Origin: Abyssalbus ytuae
GTDB taxonomy: Bacteria > Bacteroidota > Bacteroidia > Flavobacteriales > Flavobacteriaceae
NCBI RefSeq assembly: GCF_022807975.1
Contig: NZ_CP094358.1
Coordinates: forward strand, 4,124,171 to 4,188,170
Reading direction: 5' to 3'
DNA length: 64,000 nt
The position numbers and the translations under genes are program-made. The stretch's first letter is position 1, and each line of letters begins with the position of its first letter. This document shows, piece by piece, positions 7,095 through 60,890 of the stretch. The notes beneath the pieces were generated by a model. It was given only the letters and a program-made list of their open reading frames with translations, did not search any database and had not been told where the DNA came from.

Positions 7095-7454
7095 TTAAGC
7101 AAGGCCTCAAAAAAAAAATTATGTGTAACGATTTTTTGTCATATTGAGCGCAGTCGAAATATACTAAAGATTATTTCCCGACTACCCTAAATGGCAAAAA
7201 AAATAACTTTTGAGGCCTTAAGTTTTGCAAAGCAAATCGGGGGGTGTATAACTACTTACACAAAAATATCATTATTAATACTGTTGGCCATATTTTCCAA
7301 ACCTCACAGGTTTTCCGCCATAGGCGGATAAGTAAGAACCTGTGAGGTTTTCCATTACTTTTTAACACCTAACTATTGTTTTTATATAAGGGAGTTCGAA
7401 AATCTCATCATTCGGTTTCTTTTGTTTTAGAGCAAAAGAAATTATTTTTGAGAT

Positions 7455-9752: not shown

Positions 9753-10526
9753 ATGGATATAAAATCGTGTTATATAGGCCCTGAAATTTCACCGGAACAG
9801 TTTATTCCGGAACATTTCTTTTTGTTTTTGGCAAAAGGAATTTTAAATGGTTATGACGGCAGTAAGGATGTTACATTGAGATCGGGCGATTATTGTATAG
9901 TACGTAAAAACTATTTAGCACGATATAACAAACAAACCGAAAACAACGAATTTGAAAAGGTAGTGGTGATTTTTGATGAAATATTTCTAAAACAATTTCA
10001 GGAAAAGTATCAACCAAAAACAGAACGATATAAACCTAAAGAGGCATTTATTCTTTTGGGTAAAAATGAGCATATACCCGCTTTTATCTGCTCATTGATG
10101 CCTTATTATAATGGTATGGGTAAAATTGAAGAAGGAATTCAAGATACCAAGCGAGAAGAACTTTTACTTATATTGTTAGAAATGTATCCGGATTTAACGG
10201 GTATACTTTTTGACTTTGGTAAACCGGAAAAAATAAACCTGGAAGAGTTTATGAACCAAAATTATAAATTTAATGTAGGTATTGAACGTTTTGCATATTT
10301 AACGGGTAGAAGTCTTTCGGCATTTAAAAGAGATTTTAAACAAATATTTAATAATACCCCGAGTCGCTGGTTAATTCACAAAAGGTTACAAGAGGCTCAT
10401 TTTCTTATTGATAAAAAGAAACAAAAACCATCTGAAATTTATGTTGATTTAGGTTTTGAAGATTTGTCTCATTTTTCACATGCTTTTAAAAAACAATTCG
10501 GAATAAGTCCAAAGAGCTTATTATAA
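9753..10526 (+). CDS. AraC-family transcriptional regulator.
   Basis: The C-terminal AraC double-HTH is present (SLSAFKRDFKQIFNNTPSRWLIHKRLQEAHFLI...FEDLSHFSHAFKKQFGISP). Confidence 0.8.
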   Translation: MDIKSCYIGPEISPEQFIPEHFFLFLAKGILNGYDGSKDVTLRSGDYCIVRKNYLARYNKQTENNEFEKVVVIFDEIFLKQFQEKYQPKTERYKPKEAFILLGKNEHIPAFICSLMPYYNGMGKIEEGIQDTKREELLLILLEMYPDLTGILFDFGKPEKINLEEFMNQNYKFNVGIERFAYLTGRSLSAFKRDFKQIFNNTPSRWLIHKRLQEAHFLIDKKKQKPSEIYVDLGFEDLSHFSHAFKKQFGISPKSLL

Positions 10527-10619
10527 TGAGTAGCTAATCTTATTTTTAACTGGCCTAAAAGAATAAGTTATCATAGCTGTTTATTTCACTGAATTCAAAA
10601 GAAATATTATTTCCTATGG

Positions 10620-10870
10620 TTAAAGGAAACTTTTGTGGTTACCCACAAAACGGCAGACACTTTTTTTGCTCCATGCTTTTCTGAGCGAAGGCGGGCTCCT
10701 TCGCTAAAACAGTACTTCCCTTCACCTATTCTGCCTAAAGGGAGGTTATAGAATAGAGGGTAGATGTGTTTATTTGTGTAATCGGTTATTTGTTGATTTT
10801 ACACTTTGTGCTTTTTTAGATTTCTCAGTCGCCTTGCAGGCTCTTGCCAAAATGACTGCATAACACAGGG
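10620..10870. repeat. Diverged solitary copy of the repeat family that forms the 13.1-19.2 kb arrays.
   Basis: It shares gttacccacaaaacggcagacacttttttt...ctattctgcctaaagggaggtt...gtaatcgg.tatttg.tgattt.acactttgtgcttttttagatttctcagtcgcctt with the array modules. Confidence 0.6.
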
Positions 10871-11043
10871 CCTTTTCGAACGTAGTGAGAAATCTCAACT
10901 TAGGCGTAGCCAAATCTTATGAAAGTTACGATTTAAAGCTTTTTCCTTTACTACTGCAACTGTTCTGTTCAAACAGGTATTTTTTTACAAATTAGGAAGA
11001 CTTATATCTTTTTAGCTTTTATATAAAATTATTTATCGTAATA

Positions 11044-11403
11044 TTGCAATTAAGTAAATCAGAATATAAAATGGGATTAGCCAAAACAGAAATATTTACT
11101 GATGAACAGAATCAAATTGCTATTTTTTCCAAGGCTTTTGGGCACCCTGCCCGGGTAGCCATTTTACAACAATTGTTTAAAATGGATTCCTGTTATTGTG
11201 GAGATTTGGTAGAAGATATCGGGTTGGCACAGCCTACCGTGTCACAACATCTTAAGGAACTTAAAAATTTAGGGCTTATTAAAGGAAATGTGGAGGGAAC
11301 CAGTGTTTGCTATTGTATAGATAGGGAAAACTGGTTAAAAATGAAGGAGGTTATGAATCTTTTTTTTGATCAGGATGTACCTGATCATCCCGAATGTTGT
11401 TAA
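11044..11403 (+). CDS. arsR: ArsR/SmtB-family metalloregulator.
   Basis: HTH segment ARVAILQQLFKMDSCYCGDLVEDIGLAQPTVSQHLKELKNLGLI. The start may be at 11071. It begins an ars-like operon. Confidence 0.7.
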   Translation: MQLSKSEYKMGLAKTEIFTDEQNQIAIFSKAFGHPARVAILQQLFKMDSCYCGDLVEDIGLAQPTVSQHLKELKNLGLIKGNVEGTSVCYCIDRENWLKMKEVMNLFFDQDVPDHPECC

Positions 11404-11456
11404 AAAAATTTGAAACCATTAATTGTTTTATTGCGATTAAATAATTTATTGAAATA

Positions 11457-12089
11457 ATGACCCCGGTAACAGACACTATTTTCCCCAAACTTCAGGAACA
11501 TATGGAAAATTTATCCATTAATGATATCCCTGACATCCGTAAAAAAACTCTTCAGCCTTTAATTGATTTTATACAAAACAAACTAAATACGGCGCAAGCT
11601 GTAAATATCAACTTTATTTGTACCCATAATTCACGCAGAAGCCATTTATCACAGGTATGGGCGCAGGCGAGTGCTGTTTATTATGGAATTCCCAATGTGC
11701 ATTGTTACTCCGGTGGTACGGAAGTGACTGCCTTGTTTCCCATGGTGGCCAGGGTTCTGGAATATACCGGGTTTAACATTCAAAAGCTCTCTGATTCCTC
11801 CAATCCGTTGTATGCCATCAAATACAGTCCTAATTTTCATCCTGTTATCGGGTTTTCAAAAAAGTATGATGATGATTTTAATCCGGTATCCGGTTTTGCG
11901 GCTATAATGACCTGTTCCCAGGCGGATGGTGGTTGTCCTTTTATTTCCGGAGCAGAGCAACGTATACCCATCACCTTTGAAGATCCTAAAGTTTTTGATG
12001 GTACACCGGAACAGGAAGCAAAGTATATGGAGCGTAGTAAGCAGATTGCCAGAGAAATGAAATATGTATTTTCAACTATTAAGAAGTAA
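11457..12089 (+). CDS. LMW-PTP-fold protein, a putative arsenate reductase or tyrosine phosphatase-like protein of ars operons.
   Basis: CTHNSRRS P-loop (CX5R). Placed between arsR and the ACR3 permease. Confidence 0.55.
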   Translation: MTPVTDTIFPKLQEHMENLSINDIPDIRKKTLQPLIDFIQNKLNTAQAVNINFICTHNSRRSHLSQVWAQASAVYYGIPNVHCYSGGTEVTALFPMVARVLEYTGFNIQKLSDSSNPLYAIKYSPNFHPVIGFSKKYDDDFNPVSGFAAIMTCSQADGGCPFISGAEQRIPITFEDPKVFDGTPEQEAKYMERSKQIAREMKYVFSTIKK

Positions 12090-12097
12090 GATAAGAA

Positions 12098-13138
12098 ATG
12101 AGTAAAAAGAAATTAAGTTTTTTAGACAGCTATCTCACTCTTTGGATCTTCCTTGCTATGGGGATAGGAGTGGGGGCAGGATATTTTTTCCCTGTTATTG
12201 CAAAGATGATAAATACCATGAGTAGCGGCTCTACCAACATTCCTATTGCTATCGGATTAATTGTAATGATGTACCCTCCTTTGGCCAAGGTAAATTACAG
12301 CTTGCTGCCAAAGGTTTTCCGGAATGTGAAACTGTTATCTGTTTCGCTCATATTGAACTGGATTATCGGCCCGGTATTGATGTTTGTTCTTGCTATTACT
12401 TTTTTAAAAGATTATCCGGAATATATGGCAGGTTTAATATTAATCGGTTTGGCCCGTTGTATTGCCATGGTACTGGTATGGAATGACCTGGCGGAAGGAA
12501 GCAGTGAATATGGTGCGGGACTGGTAGCTTTAAACAGTATATTCCAGGTATTTGTGTATAGTTTTTATGCGTGGATATTTATTACCGTGCTGCCTCCTTA
12601 TTTCGGGTTTGAGGGTGCTATTGTAGATATTTCTATCGGCACTATTGCCGAAAGTGTGATTATTTATTTGGGAATTCCGTTTGTATTGGGTTTTTTAAGC
12701 CGTTTACTTTTGGTAAAATGGAAGGGGGAAGCCTGGTATACTACCAAGTTTATTCCTGCCATATCACCACTTACTTTAATTGCCCTTTTGTTTACCATAG
12801 TGGTGATGTTCTCACTTAAAGGGGAGTTGATTGTGGAAATACCAATGGATGTATTAATCATCGCGATCCCATTACTTATTTATTTTGCCCTGATGTTTTT
12901 TATAGGTTTCTTTTTTAGTAAAGCGGTGGGAGCTGATTATGATAAAAATGCATCGGTTGCTTTTACTGCTGCGGGAAATAATTTTGAACTGGCTATTGCC
13001 GTTGCTATTGCTGTTTTTGGCCTTAATTCGGGTCAGGCCTTTGCCGGTGTTGTTGGTCCGTTGGTAGAAGTTCCTGCGTTGATTTTACTCGTCAGGGTTT
13101 CTTTTTGGTTAAAGAAGAAATATTACAGGCTTGGTTGA
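12098..13138 (+). CDS. arsB: ACR3-family arsenite efflux permease.
   Basis: Ten-TM protein of 346 aa. N-terminus is [13 protein letters not shown]...MMYPPLAKV. Typical length and context for ACR3. Confidence 0.85.
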
Positions 13139-13140
13139 TT

Positions 13141-14310
13141 GGAATTTTTGCGTTTTTTCCAGTGTCTTTTTTTGTTTATTAATAAGGTTCGGGGGAACCA
13201 ACCTGTGTGGATGTGCTATTCTATGATGTTTATTTTGTCTTGATACAAAATGAACCAACCCGCCCGAACGTGCCGTTCGGTACGGGCGGGAAAGGCTAGG
13301 CTGTCGGAAGTGTCTTTAAATTTTTTGTTTGCTTTTTTAGATTTCTCAGTCGCCTTACTGGCTCTTGTCGAAATGACCTCGCAAAAGGGAAGAATAACAA
13401 AACCGGGAGACTGTATAGCTGGAATTTTTGCGTTTTTTCCTGTATCTTTTTTTGTTTATTAATAAGGTTCGGGGGAACCAACCTGTGTGGATGTGCTATT
13501 CTATGATGTTCATTTTGTCTTGATACAAAATGAACCAAAAAATCAAGAACATTTTAAGGAAATTTTTGTGGTTGCCCACAAAACCACAGACACTTTTTTT
13601 CGCTCCATGCTTTATCCTACTTTGCAGGATGCACTTCCGCTCAAAGTGCTGTTATTTCTGGAAAATGTTCGGGGATGCTTCGCATTTTTTGTTGTCGCAA
13701 AACCGGCTTGCAAATTCCGCGTCGCTGTACTCCTGAATCCCGGAGTTTTGCTAAGCCTATTCTGCCTAAAGGGAGGTTTTGTAATAGGGGTGATGTGTTG
13801 AATCGTGTAATCGGGTATTTGCTGATTTGACACTTTGTGCTTTTTTAGATTTCTCAGTCGCCTTACTGGCTCTTGTCGAAATGACCGCGCAAAAGGGAAG
13901 AATACCAAAACCGGGAGACTGTATAGCTGGAATTTTTGCGTTTTTTCCTGTATCTTTTTTTGTTTATTAATAAGGTTCGGGGGAACCAACCTGTGTTGAT
14001 GTGCTATTCTATGATGTTCATTTTGTCTTGATACAAAATGAACCAACCCGCCCGAACGTGCCGTTCGGTACGGGCGGGAAAGGCTAGGCTGTCGGAAGTG
14101 TCTTTAAATTTTTTGTTTGCTTTTTTAGATTTCTCAGTCGCCTTACTGGCTCTTGTCGAAATGACCTCGCAAAAGGGAAGAATAACAAAACCGGGAGACT
14201 GTATAGCTGGAATTTTTGCTATTGCATAACCGGCTTGCAAATTTCGCGTCGCTGTACTCCTGAATCCCGGAGCTTTGCTAAGCCTATTCTGCCTAAAGGG
14301 AGATTTCGCC
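13141..14310. repeat. Tandem repeat array A. It is a mosaic of about 280 bp modules carrying a GC hairpin and a roughly 500 bp module, and begins 3 bp after the arsB stop.
   Basis: The string ggaatttttgcgttttttcc recurs at 13141, 13421 and 13921. The hairpin module cccgcccgaacgtgccgttcggtacgggcggg occurs at 13262 and 14046. Modules are near-identical. Confidence 0.9.
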
Positions 14311-14339
14311 ATATACATAATCAATTTTTTTAGCAAAGG

Positions 14340-14650
14340 GATACTATTCATTCCTTATTTAAAGCTTTTGTTTTGCTATTTTTTTCCGAAAAGGGAGAAA
14401 TGTCGAGGAAGGGAACAGAAAGGGAAGTGGTGAACTATGGTGAACTAAGGTGAACTATATATGAAGTATCTATGGAGTATCTATGAAGTATCTATGGAGT
14501 ATCTATGAAGTATCTATGGAGTATCTATGAAGTATCTATGAAGGAAAGGTGAAGTTGATATGGACTTGTTCTTCATATTTTAAGTATTTCGAAAGAGGAT
14601 ATTACCAGTACTTTTTCCTTTTTTAATACTTTTTTAACAGGAGGAAACTA
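14340..14650. repeat. Segment S, holding microsatellites (GGTGAACTAW x3 and TATGRAGTATC x7.5) and ending in AGGAGG followed by ATG.
   Basis: A perfect 11-bp tandem unit, tatgaagtatc/tatggagtatc, spans 14461-14545. A diverged second copy of the whole segment lies at 19230-19450. Confidence 0.85.
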
Positions 14651-14802
14651 AATGATTAAAAAATGAGGATTTTAGAGGTTTTTTTTACAGGTAAAATACT
14701 ATAAATAAATAGGTTTTATCCTCTTATAAAATAAAGTTTTTTAATTCAATTTTAGAGTCATTAATACTAGTAGTTTCAGGATTATTAATTAAAAAAAACA
14801 TT

Positions 14803-15624
14803 ATGGCAATAGAATTAGAAATTAGAGACGGTTCTCCTCATTGGTATCTAAGTCCAGATATATGGGTTGTGCAAGAACCGGAAGATGTGATGGAAACAGT
14901 GCCCGTTGCTGGCATGCCTTTTTTTGTAAAAGCTAAGGTGAAAAATAATGGAACTAGTACCGCAGTAAACGCAACCGTAAAATTTTATTGGGGTAATCCC
15001 TCTATTGGGGTTAATAGAAATACAGCTAACTTAATTGGTCAATCATTTGTGAGTTTAAATGCAGGAGCCGAAGAAGATGTACTTTGTTTAACACCTTGGA
15101 TTCCCGAATATCTTAACAAAGGTCATGAATGTCTCATAGTTGAAGCATTTCATAGTAGTGACCCCTTAACTGGAACGGTGGATTTTAATGTTCCTACTGA
15201 TAGACATGTGGCTCAAAAGAATCTTTCAGTACTCTTAGTATCAAACTCTATGTTTCATATGAATTTTGAAATGCATAACGGATCGCGGAAAGAGGCAGTG
15301 TTTAATGCTAAAGTTGAACAAGTTAAAATTAATAATCTTCAAAGTCTTGCTCCACATTTGAAAGAAATGTTAGAAGGAAAAAATGAAGGTACATTAAAGA
15401 ATGTTGAATTTACCAATAAGACTTGTATAGAAAGTGAAGAATTAAACAATTATCAAAATGAAAGTGAGAAATTTAGTATTCATGGATACGGGAAAAAGCC
15501 AGTGGCTGTTACGGGAGAGATTGAGGGAGATTATGTTTTTTTAATAATTACTCAATATCAAGATAAGATTGAAACCGGGGGGTTGGGAATAGTAATAATT
15601 AATGACAAAAATTTTAAATTATGA
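14803..15624 (+). CDS. Hypothetical protein, first gene of the repeat-flanked two-gene cassette. There is a possible Ig/CARDB-like beta-sandwich at the N-terminus.
   Basis: Long ORF with no signal peptide. Its stop overlaps the next start (ATGA). The segment FFVKAKVKNNGTSTAVNATVKFYW resembles CARDB-type strands. Confidence 0.5.
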   Translation: MAIELEIRDGSPHWYLSPDIWVVQEPEDVMETVPVAGMPFFVKAKVKNNGTSTAVNATVKFYWGNPSIGVNRNTANLIGQSFVSLNAGAEEDVLCLTPWIPEYLNKGHECLIVEAFHSSDPLTGTVDFNVPTDRHVAQKNLSVLLVSNSMFHMNFEMHNGSRKEAVFNAKVEQVKINNLQSLAPHLKEMLEGKNEGTLKNVEFTNKTCIESEELNNYQNESEKFSIHGYGKKPVAVTGEIEGDYVFLIITQYQDKIETGGLGIVIINDKNFKL

Positions 15625-17150
15625 TACCTATTGAAATAAACAACAGACCGTTTGCTTCCGATTTAATTACAGGACTTATGATGCCTGATGGAATTTTTGA
15701 GATAAGTTTAGGTAAAATGAGGTTAAATGCCCATTTTACCAATTCAGGTGCAAGTATTTTAAATACTTTAAATATATATGTAGAAAGTGCTTCTCATCCT
15801 GGAATTGTTTTTACTCCTGTAACTCACTTTATAACCTCTTTGGGAGTAGGGGCCTCTATTTTACAAAGTTGGGAAGTAGATATTTCAACCGCACCTTCAG
15901 GTACACATTATGTAAGTTTTATTGTTGAAAACCCTGAGGGAAGACAAAGAATTATAAAAAAGATTTTTGTAACAAAAATTAGCTTTAATTCGGCAAATCA
16001 TACTTTTCTTGCTGAAACGCCAGAAGGTAAAATTGCGGTGAGATATAGAGAAATTACAGAAGTAAATAAAAATAAATGTTGTAAAAAGGAAAGAATAAAG
16101 GATAATGATGATTTAACTTATACAAATTTTTTTGAAAATCTTAGTTATACTTTTTCACTTGGCAATAAAAAAGTGGAGTTATGTCCTATTTTTTTCTTAC
16201 CCTTAGATTTAGAAACAGGCTGGGTCCCTAATCCACCATACGAAGGCCAATATAGTGATTTACCCTTTAATGACCCCTGGTGGAAAGTGGTTATTGCCAT
16301 TATAGCTTTTTTATTGCTAGTTGCGGCAGCAATTGTTGAAGCTACTTCAGGTTCAGGATCTATTACGGCAACCGCCGGGTGTACTTCTACACCATCCGGA
16401 GTTTGTGGTTCGGGAAGTGGAAGTAGCCCAATAGCTGCGGCTCTTGTTGCTGGAGCTGCTGTTGTTGCTGGAATTGCAGTATATAGTGATAAAAGAGACC
16501 TGCATAGAATTGGACAAGATAAAACAATGCCCGATAAAGGTGAATTTACGATTAGGGAAAATATGTCATCCAAAATAAAATATATAGATAATATTGAATT
16601 TGGTAAACCTTTCACAGTTAGGGTTGACTGGAAATATGAACGTGTAACAAGAGATATTAATGGTATTGAAAAGTCATACTTTCATTCTGAAGTTACCCAA
16701 AATCAAAATGTTCATTTATTATCTAAATATGTTATTGATGCTCCTGATATTGTAAGGACATACAAGAAAGAGTCTTTTACTGTAAAAGCTTCTTTCTATG
16801 ATGAAAAGAATGAACTTTATTATGGTAAACAGCTATTTGTTAAATGCTTTTTGGTACATGCTGAAAGTGAGAAAACCATAGATTTTGTTTTGCAGGATAA
16901 TGGTAAAAATTCAGATAAAATAAAAAATGATGGAACTTATACCGGGAGTTACTTTTTTAAAAAAAATGAGGGGGGTAGATGGAAAATTTATGTTGTTGCC
17001 CAAGATGTGAATAACGCCGATGAAAATATGACACCTGAAGAGGCGGCTCAAATCATTGGTGGAATTGTTCTTACTAATCAATTATCCATTAGTTTTTCGG
17101 GAGGATCTTGTCCTCTGGTTCCAGATGGAGATGTTGAAGTTATAGTGTAA
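15621..17150 (+). CDS. Hypothetical single-pass membrane protein with a Gly/Ser/Ala-rich low-complexity linker, second gene of the cassette.
   Basis: TM helix WWKVVIAIIAFLLLVAAAIV is followed by GSGSITATAGCTSTPSGVCGSGSGSSPIAAALVAGAAVVAGIAV. Translationally coupled to the upstream gene. Confidence 0.5.
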   Translation: MIPIEINNRPFASDLITGLMMPDGIFEISLGKMRLNAHFTNSGASILNTLNIYVESASHPGIVFTPVTHFITSLGVGASILQSWEVDISTAPSGTHYVSFIVENPEGRQRIIKKIFVTKISFNSANHTFLAETPEGKIAVRYREITEVNKNKCCKKERIKDNDDLTYTNFFENLSYTFSLGNKKVELCPIFFLPLDLETGWVPNPPYEGQYSDLPFNDPWWKVVIAIIAFLLLVAAAIVEATSGSGSITATAGCTSTPSGVCGSGSGSSPIAAALVAGAAVVAGIAVYSDKRDLHRIGQDKTMPDKGEFTIRENMSSKIKYIDNIEFGKPFTVRVDWKYERVTRDINGIEKSYFHSEVTQNQNVHLLSKYVIDAPDIVRTYKKESFTVKASFYDEKNELYYGKQLFVKCFLVHAESEKTIDFVLQDNGKNSDKIKNDGTYTGSYFFKKNEGGRWKIYVVAQDVNNADENMTPEEAAQIIGGIVLTNQLSISFSGGSCPLVPDGDVEVIV

Positions 17151-17204
17151 ATAGATTCTTTCATAATATTTGGGTTGTTGTAATAATTGGCATTAAAAAG
17201 GGAG

Positions 17205-19230
17205 GAATTTTGGCTATTGCATAACCGGCTTGCAAATTTCGCGTCGCTGTACTCCTGAATCCCGGAGCTTTGCTAAGCTTATTCTATCTAAAGGGAGGTT
17301 TTGTAATAGGGGTGAATGTGTTGAATCGTGTAATCGGGTATTTGTTGATTTGACACTTTGTGCTTTTTTAGATTTCTCAGTCGCCTTACAGGCTCTTGTC
17401 GAAATGACCGCGCAAAAGGGAAGAATAACAAAACCGGGAGATTGTATAGCTGGAATTTTTGCTATTGCAAAATTAGTTTGCAAATTCCGCGTCGCTGTAC
17501 TCCTGAATCCCGGAGCTTTGCTAAGCTTATTCTATCTAAAGGGAGGTTTTGTAATAGGGTTGATGTGTTGAATCGTGTAATCGGGTATTTGCTGATTTGA
17601 CACTTTGTGCTTTTTTAGATTTCTCAGTCGCCTTACAGGCTCTTGTCGAAATGACCGCGCAAAAGGGAAGAATAACAAAACCGGGAGATTGTATAGCTGG
17701 AATTTTTGCTATTGCATAACCGGCTTGCAAATTTCGCGTCGCTGTACTCCTGAATCCCGGAGTTTTGCTAAGCCTATTCTGCCTAAAGGGAGGTTTTGTA
17801 ATAGGGGTGGATGTGTTGAATCGTGTAATCGGGTATTTGCTGATTTGACACTTTGTGTTTTTTTAGATTTCTCAGTCGCCTTACAGGCTCTTGTCGAAAT
17901 GACCGCGCAAAAGGGAAGAATAACAAAACCGGGAGATTGTATAGCTGGAATTTTTGCTATTGCAAAATTAGTTTGCAAATTCCGCGTCGCTGTACTCCTG
18001 AATCCCGGAGTTTTGCTAAGCCTATTCTGCCTAAAGGGAGGCTTTGTAATAGGGGTGAATGGGTTGAATCGTGTAATCGGGTATTTGTTGATTTAACACT
18101 TTGTGGTTTTTTAGATTTCTCAGTCGCCTTACTGGCTCTTGTCGAAATGACCGCACAAAAGGGAAGAATAACAAAACCGGGAGACTGTATAGCTGGAATT
18201 TTTGCGTTTTTTCCAGTGTCTTTTTTTGTTTATTAATAAGGTTCGGGGGAACCAACCTGTGTGGATGTGCTATTCTATGATGTTCATTTTGTCTTGATAC
18301 AAAATGAACCAAAAAATCAAGAACATTTTAAGGAAATTTTTGTGGTTGCCCACAAAACCACAGACACTTTTTTTCGCTCCATGCTTTATCCTACTTTGCA
18401 GGATGCACTTCCGCTCAAAGTGCTGTTATTTCTGGAAAATGTTCGGGGATGCTTCGCATTTTTTGTTGTCGCAAAACCGGCTTGCAAATTTCGCGTCGCT
18501 GTACTTCTGAATCCCGGAGCTTTGCCAAGCCTATTCTGCCTAAAGGGAGGTTTTGTAATAGGGGTGAATGGGTTGAATCGTGTAATCGGGTATTTGCTGA
18601 TTTGACACTTTGTGCTTTTTTAGATTTCTCAGTCGCCTTACAGGCTCTTGTCGAAATGACCGCGCAAAAGGGAAGAATAACAAAACCGGGAGATTGTATA
18701 GCTGGAATTTTTGCGTTTTTTCCTGTATCTTTTTTTGTTTATTAATAAGGTTCGGGGGAACCAACCTGTGTGGATGTGCTATTCTATGATGTTCATTTTG
18801 TCTTGATACAAAATGAACCAAAAAATCAAGAACATTTTAAGGAAATTTTTGTGGTTGCCCACAAAACCACAGACACTTTTTTTCGCTCCATGCTTTATCC
18901 TACTTTGCAGGATGCACTTCCGCTCAAAGTGCTGTTATTTCTGGAAAATGTTCGGGGATGCTTCGCATTTTTTGTTGTCGCAAAACCGGCTTGCAAATTC
19001 CGCGTCGCTGTACTCCTGAATCCCGGAGTTTTGCTAAGCCTATTCTGCCTAAAGGGAGGTTTTGTAATAGGGTTGATGTGTTGAATCGTGTAATCGGGTA
19101 TTTGTTGATTTAACACTTTGTGCTTTTTTAGATTTCTCAGTCGCCTTACAGGCTCTTGTCGAAATGACCGCGCAAAAGGGAAGAATAACAAAACCGGGAG
19201 ATTGTATAGCTGGAATTTTGGCTATTTTTT
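17205..19230. repeat. Tandem repeat array B, made of four modules of about 247 bp followed by two modules of about 510 bp.
   Basis: gctattgca recurs at 17211, 17458, 17704 and 17952 (period 246-248 bp). ggaatttttgcg-initiated long modules start at 18197 and 18707. This is the same family as array A. Confidence 0.9.
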
Positions 19231-19450
19231 TCCGAAAAGGGAGAAATATCTGGAAGGGAACAGAAAGGGAAATGGTGAACTATGGTGAACTATGGTGAAC
19301 TAAGGTGAACTATATATGAAGTATCTATGAAGTATCTATGAAGGAAAGGTGAAGTTGATATGGACTTGATCTTCATATTTTAAGTATTTCGAAAGAGGAT
19401 ATTACCAGTACTTTTTCCTCTTTTAATATTTTTTTAACAGGAGGAAACTA
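19230..19450. repeat. Segment S', a second copy of segment S with fewer microsatellite units.
   Basis: tttttttccgaaaagggagaaat...ggtgaactatggtgaactatggtgaactaaggtgaactatatatgaagtatctatgaagtatctatgaaggaaaggtgaagttgatatggactt...aacaggaggaaacta. Confidence 0.85.
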
Positions 19451-20006
19451 CATAATGGCAAGGGGTTTGTATGTGAGTAATTAGTTACACAGAAGTTTTC
19501 TTTTCCCAAAAACCCTTTTTAAGCAAAGTCGATAGATTCTTTGGCCAAAGTGTTATCGCAATTTTATTATTGTTAAACCAGCGGAACGTGTCTGCTGCAG
19601 CAGGCACCTTTTAAGCTTATCAATGGACCGTTGGTTTTATCTCGCCCAAAAGTTAAAAACTATCCCGGGAAACCGGGCTCTATTAAACTCCGTCCGAAAC
19701 TGTCACAGCAGCTTCGGGGGTTGGCTAAAAAGTGATTTTATTATTGTTTTAAGCACTTGTCTGCCTGCAGGGCAGCCGGCACTTCAATTTAAAATATTGT
19801 TTTTGAATGTGTTTTAGCGGTGCTTAACGTGACAAAATGGTAACGTATCTTCTTTTTAGCCAGCCTGGGGCGGATATCCTGATGCAAGGCATGAGGGGAA
19901 TCCGAAAAATGAGATAATTGTTTAACCGGTACCGGTGATTACGACCGGTACAGTCCGTTCCCGTTTCTGACATTTGAGAGCGGGCGGATAAAAAACTATT
20001 TACATT

Positions 20007-27995: not shown

Positions 27996-29387
27996 ATGGG
28001 AAATAAATTAAAGGGGAAAGATCTAATCAAATTAGGTTTTCCCAGAAACAACAGCATCAATATTGCTTTAGGACAGATTAACAGATACTGTAAAAAAGAA
28101 AAGAAAGAAAATATATTGGAAGAAGCCAAAGAAGTGTTATTGGCTCCGGAAAAATTTCGAGGAAATGCTATTTGGGGAAAGGTAGCCGAAGGATTGGTAA
28201 AACCGGTGGAAGTTAGAAGGCATCAACTAAGAAATACAAGAGCTCCGTTTTTAATTTATGGAGAAAATGAGATTGACGAGCAAGCCAAATATCAGTTATA
28301 TGATGCTTTAAAATTACCCATAGCAGTGCAGGGAGCTTTAATGCCAGATGCACATTCGGGTTATGGTTTGCCAATAGGAGGGGTGCTTGCTACCGAAAAT
28401 GCAGTGATTCCTTATGGTGTGGGTGTTGATATTGGTTGCAGAATGTGTTTAACAGTATATCCGATAAAAGCCTCTTATTTAAAAGGGAAACAGCAGCAAT
28501 TGGAAAATATACTGGCAGAGCATACCAAATTCGGAATGAAGGAAACGCATGTTATAAAACACGATCATGAAATTTTTGAACGTGCGGAGTTTCAAGACAT
28601 TCCATTGATAAAAAGGTTGAAAACCAAGGCTTATGAACAATTGGGTACCTCAGGGAGTGGTAATCATTTTGTAGAGTTCGGGATTGTAAATATTACCGAT
28701 GAAAACAATGAATTACAATTACCTACAGGTGATTATGTAGGGTTGTTAACTCATAGCGGAAGCCGGGGTTTGGGAGCCAATATAGCGAAACATTATACTT
28801 ATTTGGCAACTAAGCAATGTCCGTTACCTAAAAATGTACAGCATTTGGCATGGTTGGATTTAAGTACCCATGATGGGCAAGAGTATTGGTTGGCTATGAA
28901 TTTAGCCGGGGATTATGCTAAAGCATGTCATGATGATATTCATAAACGAATAGGGAAATTACTGGGAGCAAAAGCAGTAGCGAAGATTGAGAATCATCAC
29001 AACTTTGCCTGGAAAGAACAAGTAAACGGGGTGGAAAGGATTGTACATAGAAAAGGAGCCACCCCTGCCAATAAAGGTGAGTTAGGAATCATTCCGGGGT
29101 CTATGACAACACCAGGATATATTGTTCGCGGTCTGGGTAATGCCGAAAGCTTAAATTCTGCTTCTCATGGTGCGGGGCGTTTACATTCACGAAGAAAATG
29201 TAAAGAAAAATTTACGAAAAGTGATATTAAACACCAATTGAAATTAAATGATGTAAGCCTTATTGGCGGTGGAATAGATGAGGCGCCTATGGCCTATAAA
29301 GACATTGAAAAAGTAATGGCAAATCAACAAGAACTGGTAGAGGTGTCAGGGACATTTATACCAAAGATTGTAAGAATGGATAAGTAA
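27996..29387 (+). CDS. rtcB: RtcB-family RNA 3'-phosphate ligase, of the PrfH-associated RtcB2 type.
   Basis: Motifs LMPDAHSGYGLPIGGV, GVDIGCRMC and NHHNFAW. The stop is 3 bp from the prfH start. Confidence 0.85.
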   Translation: MGNKLKGKDLIKLGFPRNNSINIALGQINRYCKKEKKENILEEAKEVLLAPEKFRGNAIWGKVAEGLVKPVEVRRHQLRNTRAPFLIYGENEIDEQAKYQLYDALKLPIAVQGALMPDAHSGYGLPIGGVLATENAVIPYGVGVDIGCRMCLTVYPIKASYLKGKQQQLENILAEHTKFGMKETHVIKHDHEIFERAEFQDIPLIKRLKTKAYEQLGTSGSGNHFVEFGIVNITDENNELQLPTGDYVGLLTHSGSRGLGANIAKHYTYLATKQCPLPKNVQHLAWLDLSTHDGQEYWLAMNLAGDYAKACHDDIHKRIGKLLGAKAVAKIENHHNFAWKEQVNGVERIVHRKGATPANKGELGIIPGSMTTPGYIVRGLGNAESLNSASHGAGRLHSRRKCKEKFTKSDIKHQLKLNDVSLIGGGIDEAPMAYKDIEKVMANQQELVEVSGTFIPKIVRMDK

Positions 29388-29389
29388 AA

Positions 29390-30082
29390 ATGAAAACTAA
29401 AATAATACAATTAACATCAGCAAAGGGACCCGTAGAATGTGCCTGGGTTGTAGCTAAAATACTAAAACTCTTCTTAAAAGAATTGACAGGTAATAAAATA
29501 GCCTATGAAATTTTGCATAAAGAAGATGGTTTAGAAAACGGTACGGTACAATCAGTAACTATAAAACTAAAGGGAAAGGAACTTTCGGAATTTTTAGAAG
29601 GTTGGTTAGGTACTATTCAATGGATAGGAACCTCAACTTTCAGGAAATATCATAAACGTAAAAATTGGTTTATAGGTTGTTATGAGTTGCATCAATATCA
29701 ACAAAAAACAATTAGTGAAAGTGAAATTCAATTTCAAGCTATTCGGAGTTCCGGTGCCGGGGGGCAACATGTGAACAAAGTAAGTTCGGCTATCAGAGCG
29801 AAGCATATACCAACAGGGGTTCAGGTTTTGGTGATGGATAACCGTTCGCAGCACCAAAATAAGAAGATTGCTATTGAGCGATTAAAGGAAAAAATTGCTG
29901 ATTATAATACAGGCCAGTTAAAAGAGGCTATAAAAAGTGAATGGGAAAATCATTTGAATTTGGAAAGAGGGAATCCTGTTCGAATATTTACCGGCTCAGA
30001 TTTTAAACAAAACAAAAGGGATAAATCTTTTAAAACGAAACGTAATCAGTTGAAAACCGATTTGCGAAAACAATTAGAATAA
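29390..30082 (+). CDS. prfH: Peptide chain release factor H-like protein (PrfH).
   Basis: GGQ motif (SSGAGGQHVNKV). It is short (230 aa) and lacks the codon-recognition domain, as PrfH does. Confidence 0.8.
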   Translation: MKTKIIQLTSAKGPVECAWVVAKILKLFLKELTGNKIAYEILHKEDGLENGTVQSVTIKLKGKELSEFLEGWLGTIQWIGTSTFRKYHKRKNWFIGCYELHQYQQKTISESEIQFQAIRSSGAGGQHVNKVSSAIRAKHIPTGVQVLVMDNRSQHQNKKIAIERLKEKIADYNTGQLKEAIKSEWENHLNLERGNPVRIFTGSDFKQNKRDKSFKTKRNQLKTDLRKQLE

Positions 30083-30602: not shown

Positions 30603-30799
30603 CATAATTTCAACTATGTAAGTTGATTGTGTATCCGGCAGGAGATACAAAGTATACGTTCTTTAAAATATCAGGCTGGTCTTGTTGTGTGTTTCTGTAT
30701 AGCACTATTGTATGGGGTATTACAAAGTTTGTATAATCACCTCATATACAACCTGACCTGGAGGTTTGGCTATTTCCAAAAATAGTTGCTAATCTATGT

Positions 30800-30828
30800 G
30801 TTGAGGGTTCGAATCCCTCCCGGGTACC
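30800..30828 (+). pseudogene. tRNA 3' fragment, T-arm plus acceptor 3' strand.
   Basis: gagggttcgaatccctc + ccgggtacc. No matching 5' acceptor is found upstream. Confidence 0.4.
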
Positions 30829-30838
30829 TGGTTTTCAG

Positions 30839-30901
30839 AGGCCCTGTAGCTCAAAGGCAGAGCAATAGATCGTTTCATGTGGGTTCGAGTCCCACTCCCA
30901 T
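30839..30901 (+). pseudogene. Truncated tRNA-like sequence. Acceptor, D-arm and T-arm are present but there is no anticodon arm and no complementary 3' acceptor.
   Basis: ggccctgtagctcaaaggcagagca...gtgggttcgagtcccac, about 62 nt. Confidence 0.35.
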
Positions 30902-30905
30902 AATT

Positions 30906-31007
30906 ACGGGATGGCGGAACTGGCAAACGCACTAGACTGTAAATCTAGCGAAACCGGCATTTTATGCCTCTTTTACCTGCACAGGTTCGAATCCTGTCGA
31001 GGCCACC
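30906..31007 (+). pseudogene. Degenerate class-II tRNA-Tyr(GTA)-like gene with an oversized variable region and non-pairing acceptor strands.
   Basis: D-arm gcggaactggcaaacgc, of the class II type. Anticodon arm ctagaCTGTAAAtctag. T-arm acaggttcgaatcctgt followed by cgaggccACCA. The variable region is about 32 nt and the 5' end gggatgg does not pair with the 3' end. Confidence 0.4.
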
Positions 31008-31012
31008 ATTTC

Positions 31013-31067
31013 AGGTCTTGTAGCTCAGTCAGGCAGAGCACTACACTCATAATGTAGGATTAAAGCT
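31013..31067 (+). pseudogene. 5' half of tRNA-Met/Ile2 (anticodon CAT), truncated after the anticodon arm.
   Basis: ggtcttg ta gctcagtcaggcagagc a ctacaCTCATAAtgtag, with no T-arm afterwards. Confidence 0.45.
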
Positions 31068-31441
31068 GAATCATCTTATAAAACTGATTTCCAGCCAGTC
31101 AGGCTGTAAAATTGACAAAAAGTAATTGTAAATCGGTTGTTATAGTATTTGTTGTAGCAACAATCTCTAATGTACTTTGAAATATTGGTATTGTTATTAT
31201 TGGAAATAACTACTTTTTTGGATTCAGATTTTAGCATAGTAACATATAAAAACTTTAATCTCATTCCTTAAAACCGGTTGTAGAACTTGTAACAAACTGA
31301 TGTTTCCGTATATGAAAGATGATTTGCTTTCACTGTTTTTTTAGAAAATTGTTTTATTAAAATATACTTTGGTAAAAGATCTATACCCGGGATTATTGAT
31401 CAAAGTAGGCAAGGTCTCCGTTACAGAAATTGTCATTATGA

Positions 31442-59858: not shown

Positions 59859-60323
59859 TTATTTTACAAACAGTCTTTCGTCAAATTCAAAAAGTTCTGT
59901 TTCCAGAATTTTTACTTTGGAAAAATCCTTGTGATACGGATTGATAAGATAGTTATAATCTCCCTTCACAATTGCAGAAGGTACTTTTATTAACAGGTAT
60001 TTATTTTCCCTTATAAAGTTATCTCCTATTATTTGAGTAGAATTAGGGTGAGGCAAGGATTTCCAGTTTTCGGGGAGTTCACTTTTTTTTAATTGATAAA
60101 TAATTGATTTGTTATCAGGAATTTCAATTTTTAATATATGGTAGTCTAAGGGAATATTACCCAAAGGTGTATGAACTGCTATTTCTATAGTACATAATGC
60201 CCTTGAATTACAGGTATAAACTACAGCAGTCCCTTTACTATTCCACCTCCCTCCTGCTTTTTCCGCACCTTTTCCGCTAAGGTCAGTTTTATATTTTTCC
60301 TTACAAAGACGGTAAACGATCAT
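59859..60323 (-). CDS. RES-domain toxin, a putative NAD+-degrading toxin.
   Basis: RES signature in GGRWNSKGTAVVYTCNSRALCTIEIAVH, with Arg, Glu and Ser spaced as in the RES fold. Confidence 0.75.
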   Translation of the reverse strand: MIVYRLCKEKYKTDLSGKGAEKAGGRWNSKGTAVVYTCNSRALCTIEIAVHTPLGNIPLDYHILKIEIPDNKSIIYQLKKSELPENWKSLPHPNSTQIIGDNFIRENKYLLIKVPSAIVKGDYNYLINPYHKDFSKVKILETELFEFDERLFVK

Positions 60324-60751
60324 GCTAATACGCCGTATTCTATACGGGTTAATTCATCTTTTAAGAGGCTTATACCAAAGGTGTTGTCCAGAAGTTCTTT
60401 GGGTTTTATACCTCCTATGGCAAGATTAATGGTATCTAACCACTCATTAAACTTTTCTTTATTACCAAATACTTCTACTCCATGTTTATACAAAAGAGTT
60501 ACTTCAAGAATTTTTTCGGTATGGATGGGGTCGAAAGCTTTTTTTTCACGTTTATAACGCTGCATGGTTCTTTCTGAAATATGTAAAAACCCCGACCACT
60601 CATTAAGTGTAAACGGACTTTTTTCGGTAAGGGCAAGAAATTTATTAAATTCTATGCCTTTTCTTACGGCTTTTATTAAAAAAAGGATATCCCTGTCATC
60701 TATAGAACCATAAGAAAAACGGGGGTTGTTAAGATCTAATGCTTCTTCCAT
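60320..60751 (-). CDS. Xre/MbcA/ParS-type antitoxin (DUF2384) paired with the RES toxin.
   Basis: It sits immediately upstream of the RES gene with a 4-bp overlap. Its size and its helical C-terminal toxin-binding domain fit DUF2384. The ORF-track start at 60799 is probably too far upstream, and M17 (60751) is preferred. Confidence 0.6.
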   Translation of the reverse strand: MEEALDLNNPRFSYGSIDDRDILFLIKAVRKGIEFNKFLALTEKSPFTLNEWSGFLHISERTMQRYKREKKAFDPIHTEKILEVTLLYKHGVEVFGNKEKFNEWLDTINLAIGGIKPKELLDNTFGISLLKDELTRIEYGVLA

Positions 60752-60890
60752 GGTTAATTTTTTGTAAATATACGAAAATTGTCGTAAAAAAAACGACAAA
60801 TGGCATTTAATTTATCTGAGGCACAAAAAAGCTCAGAATGGCATTGTAATTGTGGCGTAGTTAATAATTAACATTAAAAAGCCACAACAT

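Follow-up and report, generated by a model that had tools for sequence, protein, structure and literature searches.

Two tandem-repeat arrays, A and B, were analysed in a 64,000-nt stretch of the Abyssalbus ytuae genome (contig NZ_CP094358.1, positions 4,124,171 to 4,188,170; hereafter the window), in which near-identical, non-coding repeats bracket a cassette of two genes. On balance, it is probable that the arrays are non-coding and lineage-specific and grew, in the manner of a satellite, by amplification of a composite intergenic repeat that contains a unit resembling repetitive extragenic palindromes (REPs); both an origin by recombination and consequences for recombination are proposed. 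The arrays are unusual in a flavobacterium in the size of their modules (247–509 bp), in their combined length (3.2 kb) and in their near-identity. A sequence-only reading of the same DNA had listed an uncharacterised satellite-like element or amplification-prone region among several options, and this is the option that fits the evidence. No new molecular machine or mechanism is implied by the present evidence.

Architecture of the arrays, their tails and the solitary copy

The full module map was derived from a repeat finder and an anchor scan. All modules lie on the plus strand and share the orientation of the flanking genes. Array A (13141–14305) has the order S-L-S-partial core and consists of A1 (type S, 280 bp, 13141–13420, with a GC-rich hairpin at 13259–13290), A2 (type L, 508 bp, 13421–13928), A3 (type S, 280 bp, 13929–14208, with the GC hairpin at 14047–14078) and A4, a core truncated to 97 bp (14209–14305) and followed by 70 unique nt. 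Array B (17204–19221) is composed of four cores of 247/248 bp, namely B1 (17204–17451), B2 (17452–17698), B3 (17699–17946) and B4 (17947–18194), two L modules of 508/509 bp, B5 (18195–18703) and B6 (18704–19211), and a terminal partial junction, GGAATTTTGG (19212–19221). For 17204–18205, Tandem Repeats Finder returned a period of 248 with 4.0 copies, 94% matches and a score of 1766. Together, these programs bear out the tandem arrays described by the sequence-only reading, the coordinates of which were essentially right, except that the tails of 230–280 bp following each array had not been set apart from them. That reading had also placed the start of array A 3 bp after the stop of an arsB gene; the array in fact begins 1–2 nt past the stop codon (13136–13138), and the gene encodes an ACR3/SBF-type transporter. 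Array B starts 54 nt past the stop codon of the 509-aa gene of the cassette. The G+C content of the arrays is 41–42% as against 33.9% for the window, and their plus strand is rich in G+T.

The junction motif GGAATTTT[T/G]GC was found by the anchor scan at 11 of 11 module boundaries and is absent from the remainder of the 64 kb. The junction of core modules pairs with GCAAATTCC, which lies 17 nt downstream of it, and no such pairing exists in L or S. The 15-nt sequence GGAATTTTGGCTATT, which opens array B at 17204, recurs at 19212, where it is made up of the partial junction and the bases that follow. The three module types are related in a simple manner. L equals the core with about 261 extra bp directly after the junction, this insert terminating in a degenerate junction copy, and S equals nt 1–118 of L, 69 unique nt that include the GC hairpin, and the final 93 nt of L. 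Core (C-type) and L/S-type modules part ways exactly past the junction.

Copies of the same type are 92.7–98.8% identical, in agreement with the near-identity claimed earlier; A2 and B6 share 98.8%, A1 and A3 98.6%, and B5 and B6 98.0%. Polymorphisms are common to both arrays, and array B shows a higher-order pattern in which B1 resembles B3 and B2 resembles B4, with a clustered 4-nt variant in common. A perfect match of 378 bp connects 13412 in array A with 18695 in array B; the two copies are in direct orientation and 5283 bp apart. The diverged solitary copy noticed by the sequence-only reading was confirmed at 10620–10863 on the plus strand, downstream of an AraC gene. It opens with a terminator-like hairpin and T-run (10631–10667), varies in its middle part and also holds a conserved block of 135 bp that includes a REP-like unit; its segments 10620–10679 and 10725–10863 show 85–90% identity. 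Since the higher-order pattern, the polymorphisms shared across arrays, the single junction sequence and the occurrence at just three neighbouring loci in the 64-kb window all point the same way, a local amplification is favoured.

One tail follows each array. Tail A (14376–14656, plus strand) has a purine-rich leader and microsatellites and ends at ...AACAGGAGGAAACTA; tail B (19222–19456, plus strand) is 95% identical to it. The microsatellites, of 10- and 11-bp periods, are TGGTGAACTA ×3.1 (14428–14458) and TGAAGTATCTA ×8.5 (14451–14543) in tail A, and TGGTGAACTA ×4.2 and TGAAGTATCTA ×3.5 in tail B (19272–19343). Both tails stop at a common end point, beyond which the DNA differs. The segment of array plus tail is present twice, in direct orientation, with one copy on each side of the cassette. 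The microsatellite periods approximate one helical turn, and the position is about 260–370 bp upstream of the cassette. This suggests slippage-prone sequences that are possibly phase-variable or protein-binding.

The REP-like palindrome and the search for relatives

The periods of the arrays (247, 248, 280, 508 and 509) include no multiple of 3, and a 163-aa open reading frame (ORF) within the arrays, which also stood in for translated relatives of the repeats, has no relative among 5.8 billion protein clusters. We therefore regard the arrays as non-coding, and the internal ORFs as by-products of the repeats, as had been proposed from the sequence.

Each complete module carries one REP-like unit, exemplified by GGTCATTTCGACAAGAGCCTGTAAGGCGACTGAGAAATCTA (17368–17409, minus strand). 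The plus-strand spans of the nine units are 13339–13377, 13847–13885, 14127–14165, 17370–17408, 17617–17655, 17865–17903, 18113–18151, 18622–18660 and 19130–19168; all are single and in the same orientation, and it is on the minus strand that their hairpin has its greatest stability. With a length of about 40 nt the unit accounts for about 16% of a core module, and some 84% of each module is not REP-like. The stretch that is most conserved, being invariant across the arrays and the solitary copy, includes AGATTTCTCAGTCGCCTT...GAAATGAC.

The invariant 18-mer of this stretch was scanned against 185,579 species genomes. No second module was found; neither the source genome nor a relative of the module was matched, and apart from chance matches the scan recovered just a family of short palindromes of 34–36 nt, (C/T)GTCATTTCGAAGGAGCAAGGCGACTGAGAAATCT. 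This palindrome is identical in metagenome-assembled genomes (MAGs) of Deltaproteobacteria, Thermodesulfobacteriota, Chloroflexota, Leptospiraceae and Flavobacteriaceae. In the form TGTCATTTCGAAGGAGCAAGGCGACTGAGAAATCT it is present at eight loci (L001, L006, L007, L010, L012, L018, L020 and L025), in MAGs of at least five phyla, and Saccharibacteria, Flagellimonas and Christiangramia have near-identical copies. A shorter, inverted copy often accompanies it, with inverted pairs at L001, L002, L020, L022 and L023. Tandem repeats of about 150 bp on the Chloroflexota contig L025 consist of the palindrome in alternation with a CGTCATCCCGAGC...GGGATCTC unit. No Rfam match was obtained for the family across 14 loci carrying the palindrome.

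On the GTCAT strand, the palindrome folds with nine Watson-Crick pairs (5+2+2) interrupted by two tandem G·A mismatches. Among nine distinct sequences of this hairpin, 98.8% of the cells are paired and compensatory double changes occur in four of the nine pairs. The observed values were matched by none of 500 shuffles, and controls with slid positions dropped to 12–51%. The array copies begin with the tag GGTC (9/9), where relatives from other genomes have TGTC or CGTC. Their stem starts AT...AT and has an extended inner stem, GCCT/AGGC, giving 9–11 pairs with tandem G·A mismatches; the loop is of 3 nt (AAG or GTA) and the tail reads CTA, CTC or CTT. Judged by these sequences, the array unit is a derived form of the GTCAT...ATCT palindrome family with an extended inner stem. 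As each module includes one unit from a REP-like palindrome family that is widespread, the arrays stand near known REP clusters, such as neisserial intergenic mosaic elements (NIMEs) and bacterial interspersed mosaic elements (BIMEs), and are less exotic than the sequence-only reading had held. A further REP-like unit, TGTCATATTGAGCGCAGTCGAAATATACT, is intergenic at 7138–7166 (plus strand) and shows that the palindrome superfamily is dispersed in this genome outside the arrays too.

Two other hairpins were noted. A terminator-like hairpin, TTTGTGGTTGCCCACAAAACCACAGA followed by T7, is found on the plus strand of every L module (13565–13600, 18339–18374 and 18848–18883) and in the solitary copy, and is missing from the core and S modules; terminator-like hairpins are enriched, with 25 observed versus 8.7 ± 3.6 expected. 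The second hairpin, GTTCATTTTGT-CTTGAT-ACAAAATGAAC followed by CAAAAAATCAAG (18282–18321, plus strand), is 90% identical to a multi-copy motif of Persicobacter megaplasmids, where the motif delimits a small repeated unit carrying a nested palindromic insert. In the plasmid of Persicobacter sp. JZB09 (CP012862.1; locus L038, 6712–7275), a 174-nt intergenic unit recurs at a spacing of 390 bp with the hairpin motif TTCTTGATAAAAAACGAAACAAAAAATCAAGG ahead of each copy, and one copy of the unit is broken by a palindromic insert of about 150 nt flanked by ATCAAGG. The JZB09 repeat may be seen as a small-scale analogue of the arrays.

No other search gave a relative of the composite module. The viral scan gave no match, and the two metagenome scans gave 0 matches with a two-box pattern and four matches, all due to chance, with a junction 20-mer. 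When L, S and tail were compared by BLASTN with plasmids and phages, the 39-nt hairpin match to Persicobacter plasmids was the sole result. Literature searches by sequence strings produced chance primer matches only, and a literature search on Abyssalbus gave nothing relevant. With no relatives in the genomes, metagenomes, phages and plasmids searched, the composite module appears to be lineage-specific.

Proposed origin and competing explanations

The following scheme is proposed. The basic unit of about 247 bp would be a patchwork of short hairpins, one of them from the cross-phylum GTCAT...ATCT family that resembles the REPs tagged with CGTC. Module variants would have arisen by an insertion of about 261 bp (L) and by internal replacement (S). 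Unequal homologous recombination or replication slippage would then have duplicated single modules or runs of several, with gene conversion holding the copies similar, and the solitary copy may mark the left boundary of the same variable region. Because the arrays are co-oriented with the genes and lie close behind their stop codons, they would be transcribed as 3' extensions, presumably as clusters of hairpins and terminators resembling a 3' untranslated region behind ACR3 and the cassette, in the manner of REP/BIME elements; by the same analogy, the hairpins may act as terminators or as a protection for the mRNA upstream of them. The 378 bp of perfect direct identity would be ample for RecA to loop out the cassette, re-integrate it or amplify it in tandem; loop-out or amplification is expected, and the two direct arrays would serve as RecA substrates by which the 5.28-kb cassette unit could be deleted, circularised or amplified. 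The arrays may also favour the exchange of accessory genes, as has been proposed for NIME arrays of Neisseria.

Several points weigh against this amplification scheme. The evidence comes from one genome. A site-specific insertion of modules would also fit the invariant junction, GGAATTTTTGC, and the occurrence of GGAATTTTGGCTATT as a direct repeat of 15 nt at both outer ends of array B. The REP-like unit, being so small a part of the core and having a GGTC tag and a constant orientation, is unlike canonical CGTC REP dimers, and the remainder of the module has no identified relatives. Array transcripts or a regulatory role may exist.

The closest parallels are the NIME arrays of Neisseria, CGTC-REP clusters and the BIMEs of E. 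coli. In NIMEs, a 20-bp dRS3 (ATTCCC-N8-GGGAAT) bounds each repeat sequence (RS) unit, and the RS, of 19–214 bp, fall into more than 100 families, their copies numbering in the hundreds in a genome (Bentley et al., 2007, PMC1797815). These arrays flank variable genes, differ in copy number, have been proposed as recombination substrates and had reportedly not been seen outside Neisseria (PMC1797815). The dRS3 has been classed as CGTC-1 within the CGTC-REP superfamily (Di Nocera et al., 2013, PMC3733652), whose members have the tag CGTC (variants TGTC and CCTC), a stem of 8–9 bp with complementary A/T at positions 1–2, a loop of 4–5 nt and a 3-nt tail near CCA, are mostly head-to-head dimers and are found in Bacteroidetes including Gramella forsetii (PMC3733652). 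Like NIMEs, the Abyssalbus arrays are long, intergenic, non-coding mosaics with a palindrome of the CGTC-REP type in each unit and a G+C content unlike that of the surroundings, and they flank variable or exchanged genes, bordering in this one genome a mobile cassette and an ars operon at the edge of a variable region. They differ in that the units measure 247–509 bp, belong to one family and hold a single palindrome of about 40 nt internally, not at their borders; the junction is GGAATTTTTGC with no bounding dRS3, and only three loci, and no link to a phage recombinase, are known. As to the CGTC-REPs, relatives of the array unit have the (C/T)GTC head, a stem starting with AT, a short tail and head-to-head dimers, and occur in many phyla including Flavobacteriaceae (Gramella/Christiangramia), whereas the array copies have a GGTC head, a 3-nt loop, a tail that is not CCA-like, a single orientation and no dimers.

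A likeness to BIMEs lies in the mosaic of palindromes and in the position right behind genes; BIME units, however, measure about 40–100 bp with alternating REPs, and the array modules are 5–10 times larger and co-oriented, with one REP-like unit per 247–509 bp. The BIMEs of E. coli are mosaics of palindromic units and linkers that follow immediately on genes, occur in varying numbers of tandem copies and act as stabilisers of mRNA 3' ends, as terminators or as recombination sites. Gene units flanked by long direct repeats are, in general, expected to undergo RecA-mediated loop-out or tandem amplification, and the cassette between direct repeats resembles such amplifiable units. The defining features of these systems fail (no bounding dRS3, no alternating REPs, wrong tag and loop), and the arrays were therefore filed as working like NIMEs, CGTC-REPs and BIMEs, not as members of them. 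If the amplification scheme is true, REP-type palindromes in Flavobacteriaceae can seed satellite arrays at the kilobase scale, far above classical BIME size, and arrays at the joints of horizontally acquired blocks provide long perfect homology for the gain, loss and amplification of cassettes, a point of relevance to the assembly of variable and defence islands in Bacteroidota. It would also carry a practical caution, as such arrays yield spurious ORFs and hot spots of mis-assembly.

An alternative that we consider rather unlikely holds that the modules are small cassettes inserted serially by a site-specific recombinase encoded elsewhere, which recognises GGAATTTTTGC or the REP-like hairpin, and that the arrays are active landing pads for accessory genes, similar to integron cassettes or to the dRS3-targeted recombination proposed for Neisseria. 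The constancy of the junction at all 11 boundaries and the divergence of module types exactly past it agree with this, as do the 15-nt direct repeat bounding array B, the degenerate junction copy that closes the L insert, the shared final nucleotide of tails with unlike DNA beyond, and the fact that, on the border of a defence island, family members enclose both the ars operon and the cassette. Yet conserved junctions are likewise predicted by the amplification of one founding junction, and no recombinase, integrase or transposase is encoded within 64 kb, no attC-like R''/R' cores were seen, and no module was found at other loci or in other genomes or metagenomes searched. An integron cassette array as such was rejected, as there is no tyrosine recombinase among the window ORFs, the junction lacks GTTRRRY and attC-like R''/R' cores are missing. 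Taken furthest, the idea would make the arrays a Bacteroidota counterpart of NIME arrays, that is, actively maintained landing pads at the defence-island edge on which a recombinase from elsewhere acts at GGAATTTTTGC or at the GTCAT...ATCT hairpin to capture, excise and exchange the ars operon and the two-gene cassette; in this extended form we hold it to be unlikely.

If the arrays were a tandem set of genes for a small structured RNA, or gave a long, repetitive non-coding transcript acting as a sponge or scaffold, this would account for the numerous local hairpins, for the terminator-like site (hairpin and T7) on the plus strand of L modules, for the G+T-rich plus strand, as is often seen in sense strands of structured RNAs, and for the co-orientation of modules with the flanking genes. 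The RNA analyses nevertheless make this improbable. Beyond chance miRNA matches, Rfam gave nothing at gathering thresholds for the whole window or at E ≤ 5 for 10400–19700. The core and L modules, on both strands, folded no better than shuffles, with minimum free energy z-scores of −0.25, −0.34 and −1.0. RNAalifold on seven cores and the solitary copy gave a covariation term of +0.69 with 1 of 42 pairs compensatory, and the principal predicted stem is disrupted in the solitary copy by three mismatches. The Bacteroidota −7 box TAnnTTTG is absent from the plus strand of arrays A and B, the core and S modules have no terminator-like site, and the REP-like hairpin is most stable on the opposite strand. 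The tandem small-RNA gene array suggested by the sequence-only reading is accordingly not supported, there being no promoter per unit, a terminator-like site in L only, no fold signal or covariation, and no homologues in the genomes and metagenomes searched. Nor did its promoter-like string stand up: TTGACA-13 nt-TAGATT has the wrong spacing, follows a consensus that is wrong for Bacteroidota and was not called by the sigma-70 scan.

It is very improbable that the modules are non-autonomous transposable elements, either miniature inverted-repeat transposable elements (MITEs) or PATE-like, that inserted repeatedly into each other. The insertion-like nesting of L (core plus 261 bp) would suit such an origin, and the related Persicobacter hairpin bounds a repeat with a nested 150-nt palindromic insert and an ATCAAGG duplication. 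Against this, neither the modules nor the insert end in terminal inverted repeats (8 nt is the length of the best candidate), no further copy and no cognate transposase exist in the 64 kb, and a head-to-tail order with a constant junction is atypical of MITEs. An insertion sequence or MITE with terminal inverted repeats and target-site duplications, which the sequence-only reading had named as an outcome that would overturn it, was thus not what was found. An assembly artefact, in which the repeat was mis-assembled or artificially expanded, is hardly credible: near-identical repeats of 250–500 bp are hard for short-read assemblers, but the source is a single contig of 4,365,036 bp, and the arrays have copy-specific substitutions, three module types in a set order and unique flanks. 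A CRISPR array, in which repeats of 24–48 nt alternate with unique spacers of similar size, was also rejected, because here whole units of 247–509 bp recur.

The two-gene cassette and its neighbourhood

The gene order is aldehyde reductase, AraC-type regulator, solitary copy, arsR, an arsC-like gene, ACR3-type transporter, array A with tail A, the 273-aa gene, the 509-aa gene, array B with tail B, and then a variable/defence island with HTH, HNH, RtcB-PrfH, AbiV, OLD/TOPRIM+UvrD and RES-Xre genes. The 509-aa protein and the reductase match proteins of A. ytuae with 100% identity. Searches of the ORFs with Pfam, NCBIfam and PADLOC revealed no transposase, integrase, tyrosine recombinase or HUH gene within 64 kb.

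The cassette genes, both on the plus strand, encode proteins of 273 aa (14803–15624) and 509 aa (15621–17150), which had no Pfam, PADLOC or PDB match and to which no family could be assigned. More than 150 homologues with 45–79% identity were found in Bacteroidota, Acidobacteriota, Bacillota and Gammaproteobacteria. The two genes are always together, including in Ulvibacterium and on metagenomic contigs, and stand in unrelated contexts (loci L026, L027, L028, L031 and L032), often adjoining genes for type I restriction-modification, TIR, dynamin-like GTPase or AAA_15/21 proteins. DNA homology to four other genomes is bounded at 14779–14795 and 17151–17156, and all four of these genomes lack the array and tail. 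The two-gene cassette is accordingly horizontally mobile, with the arrays not part of it, and it is a candidate accessory or defence-island module. An AlphaFold model from the cassette (pLDDT 75.9) has beta-sandwich (macroglobulin/Ig-like) domains on either side of a helical transmembrane hairpin; its structural matches are generic beta-sandwiches of the macroglobulin/Ig-like kind, with a TM value of about 0.15.

On the other side of the ars operon, the homology with Mariniflexile litorale (83%) stops at 10613–10616, 4–7 nt ahead of the solitary copy at 10620. As homology breaks at the cassette edges and at the solitary copy, the repeat family is located at joints between gene blocks. Members of this family enclose both the ars operon and the cassette, at the edge of the defence island.

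Within 20000–55000 the island encodes HTH and HNH proteins, a protein of 787 aa whose N-terminus resembles a nucleoside 2-deoxyribosyltransferase, RtcB-PrfH, an M78 peptidase, AbiV, and an OLD-TOPRIM ATPase with a UvrD helicase (Gabija-like); a RES-Xre toxin-antitoxin pair lies beyond these genes at 59859–60799. Directly downstream of RtcB (27996–29387), a PrfH-like gene with an RF-1 domain (29390–30082) and a TPR gene, two tRNA-like elements are present at 30756–31086 (plus strand). They exceed the Rfam tRNA threshold, were not called by ARAGORN and overlap sub-threshold matches to YrlA (Y RNA-like) of 33.2 and 30.2 bits, which suggests Y-RNA-like or tRNA-like RNAs tied to the RtcB repair module.

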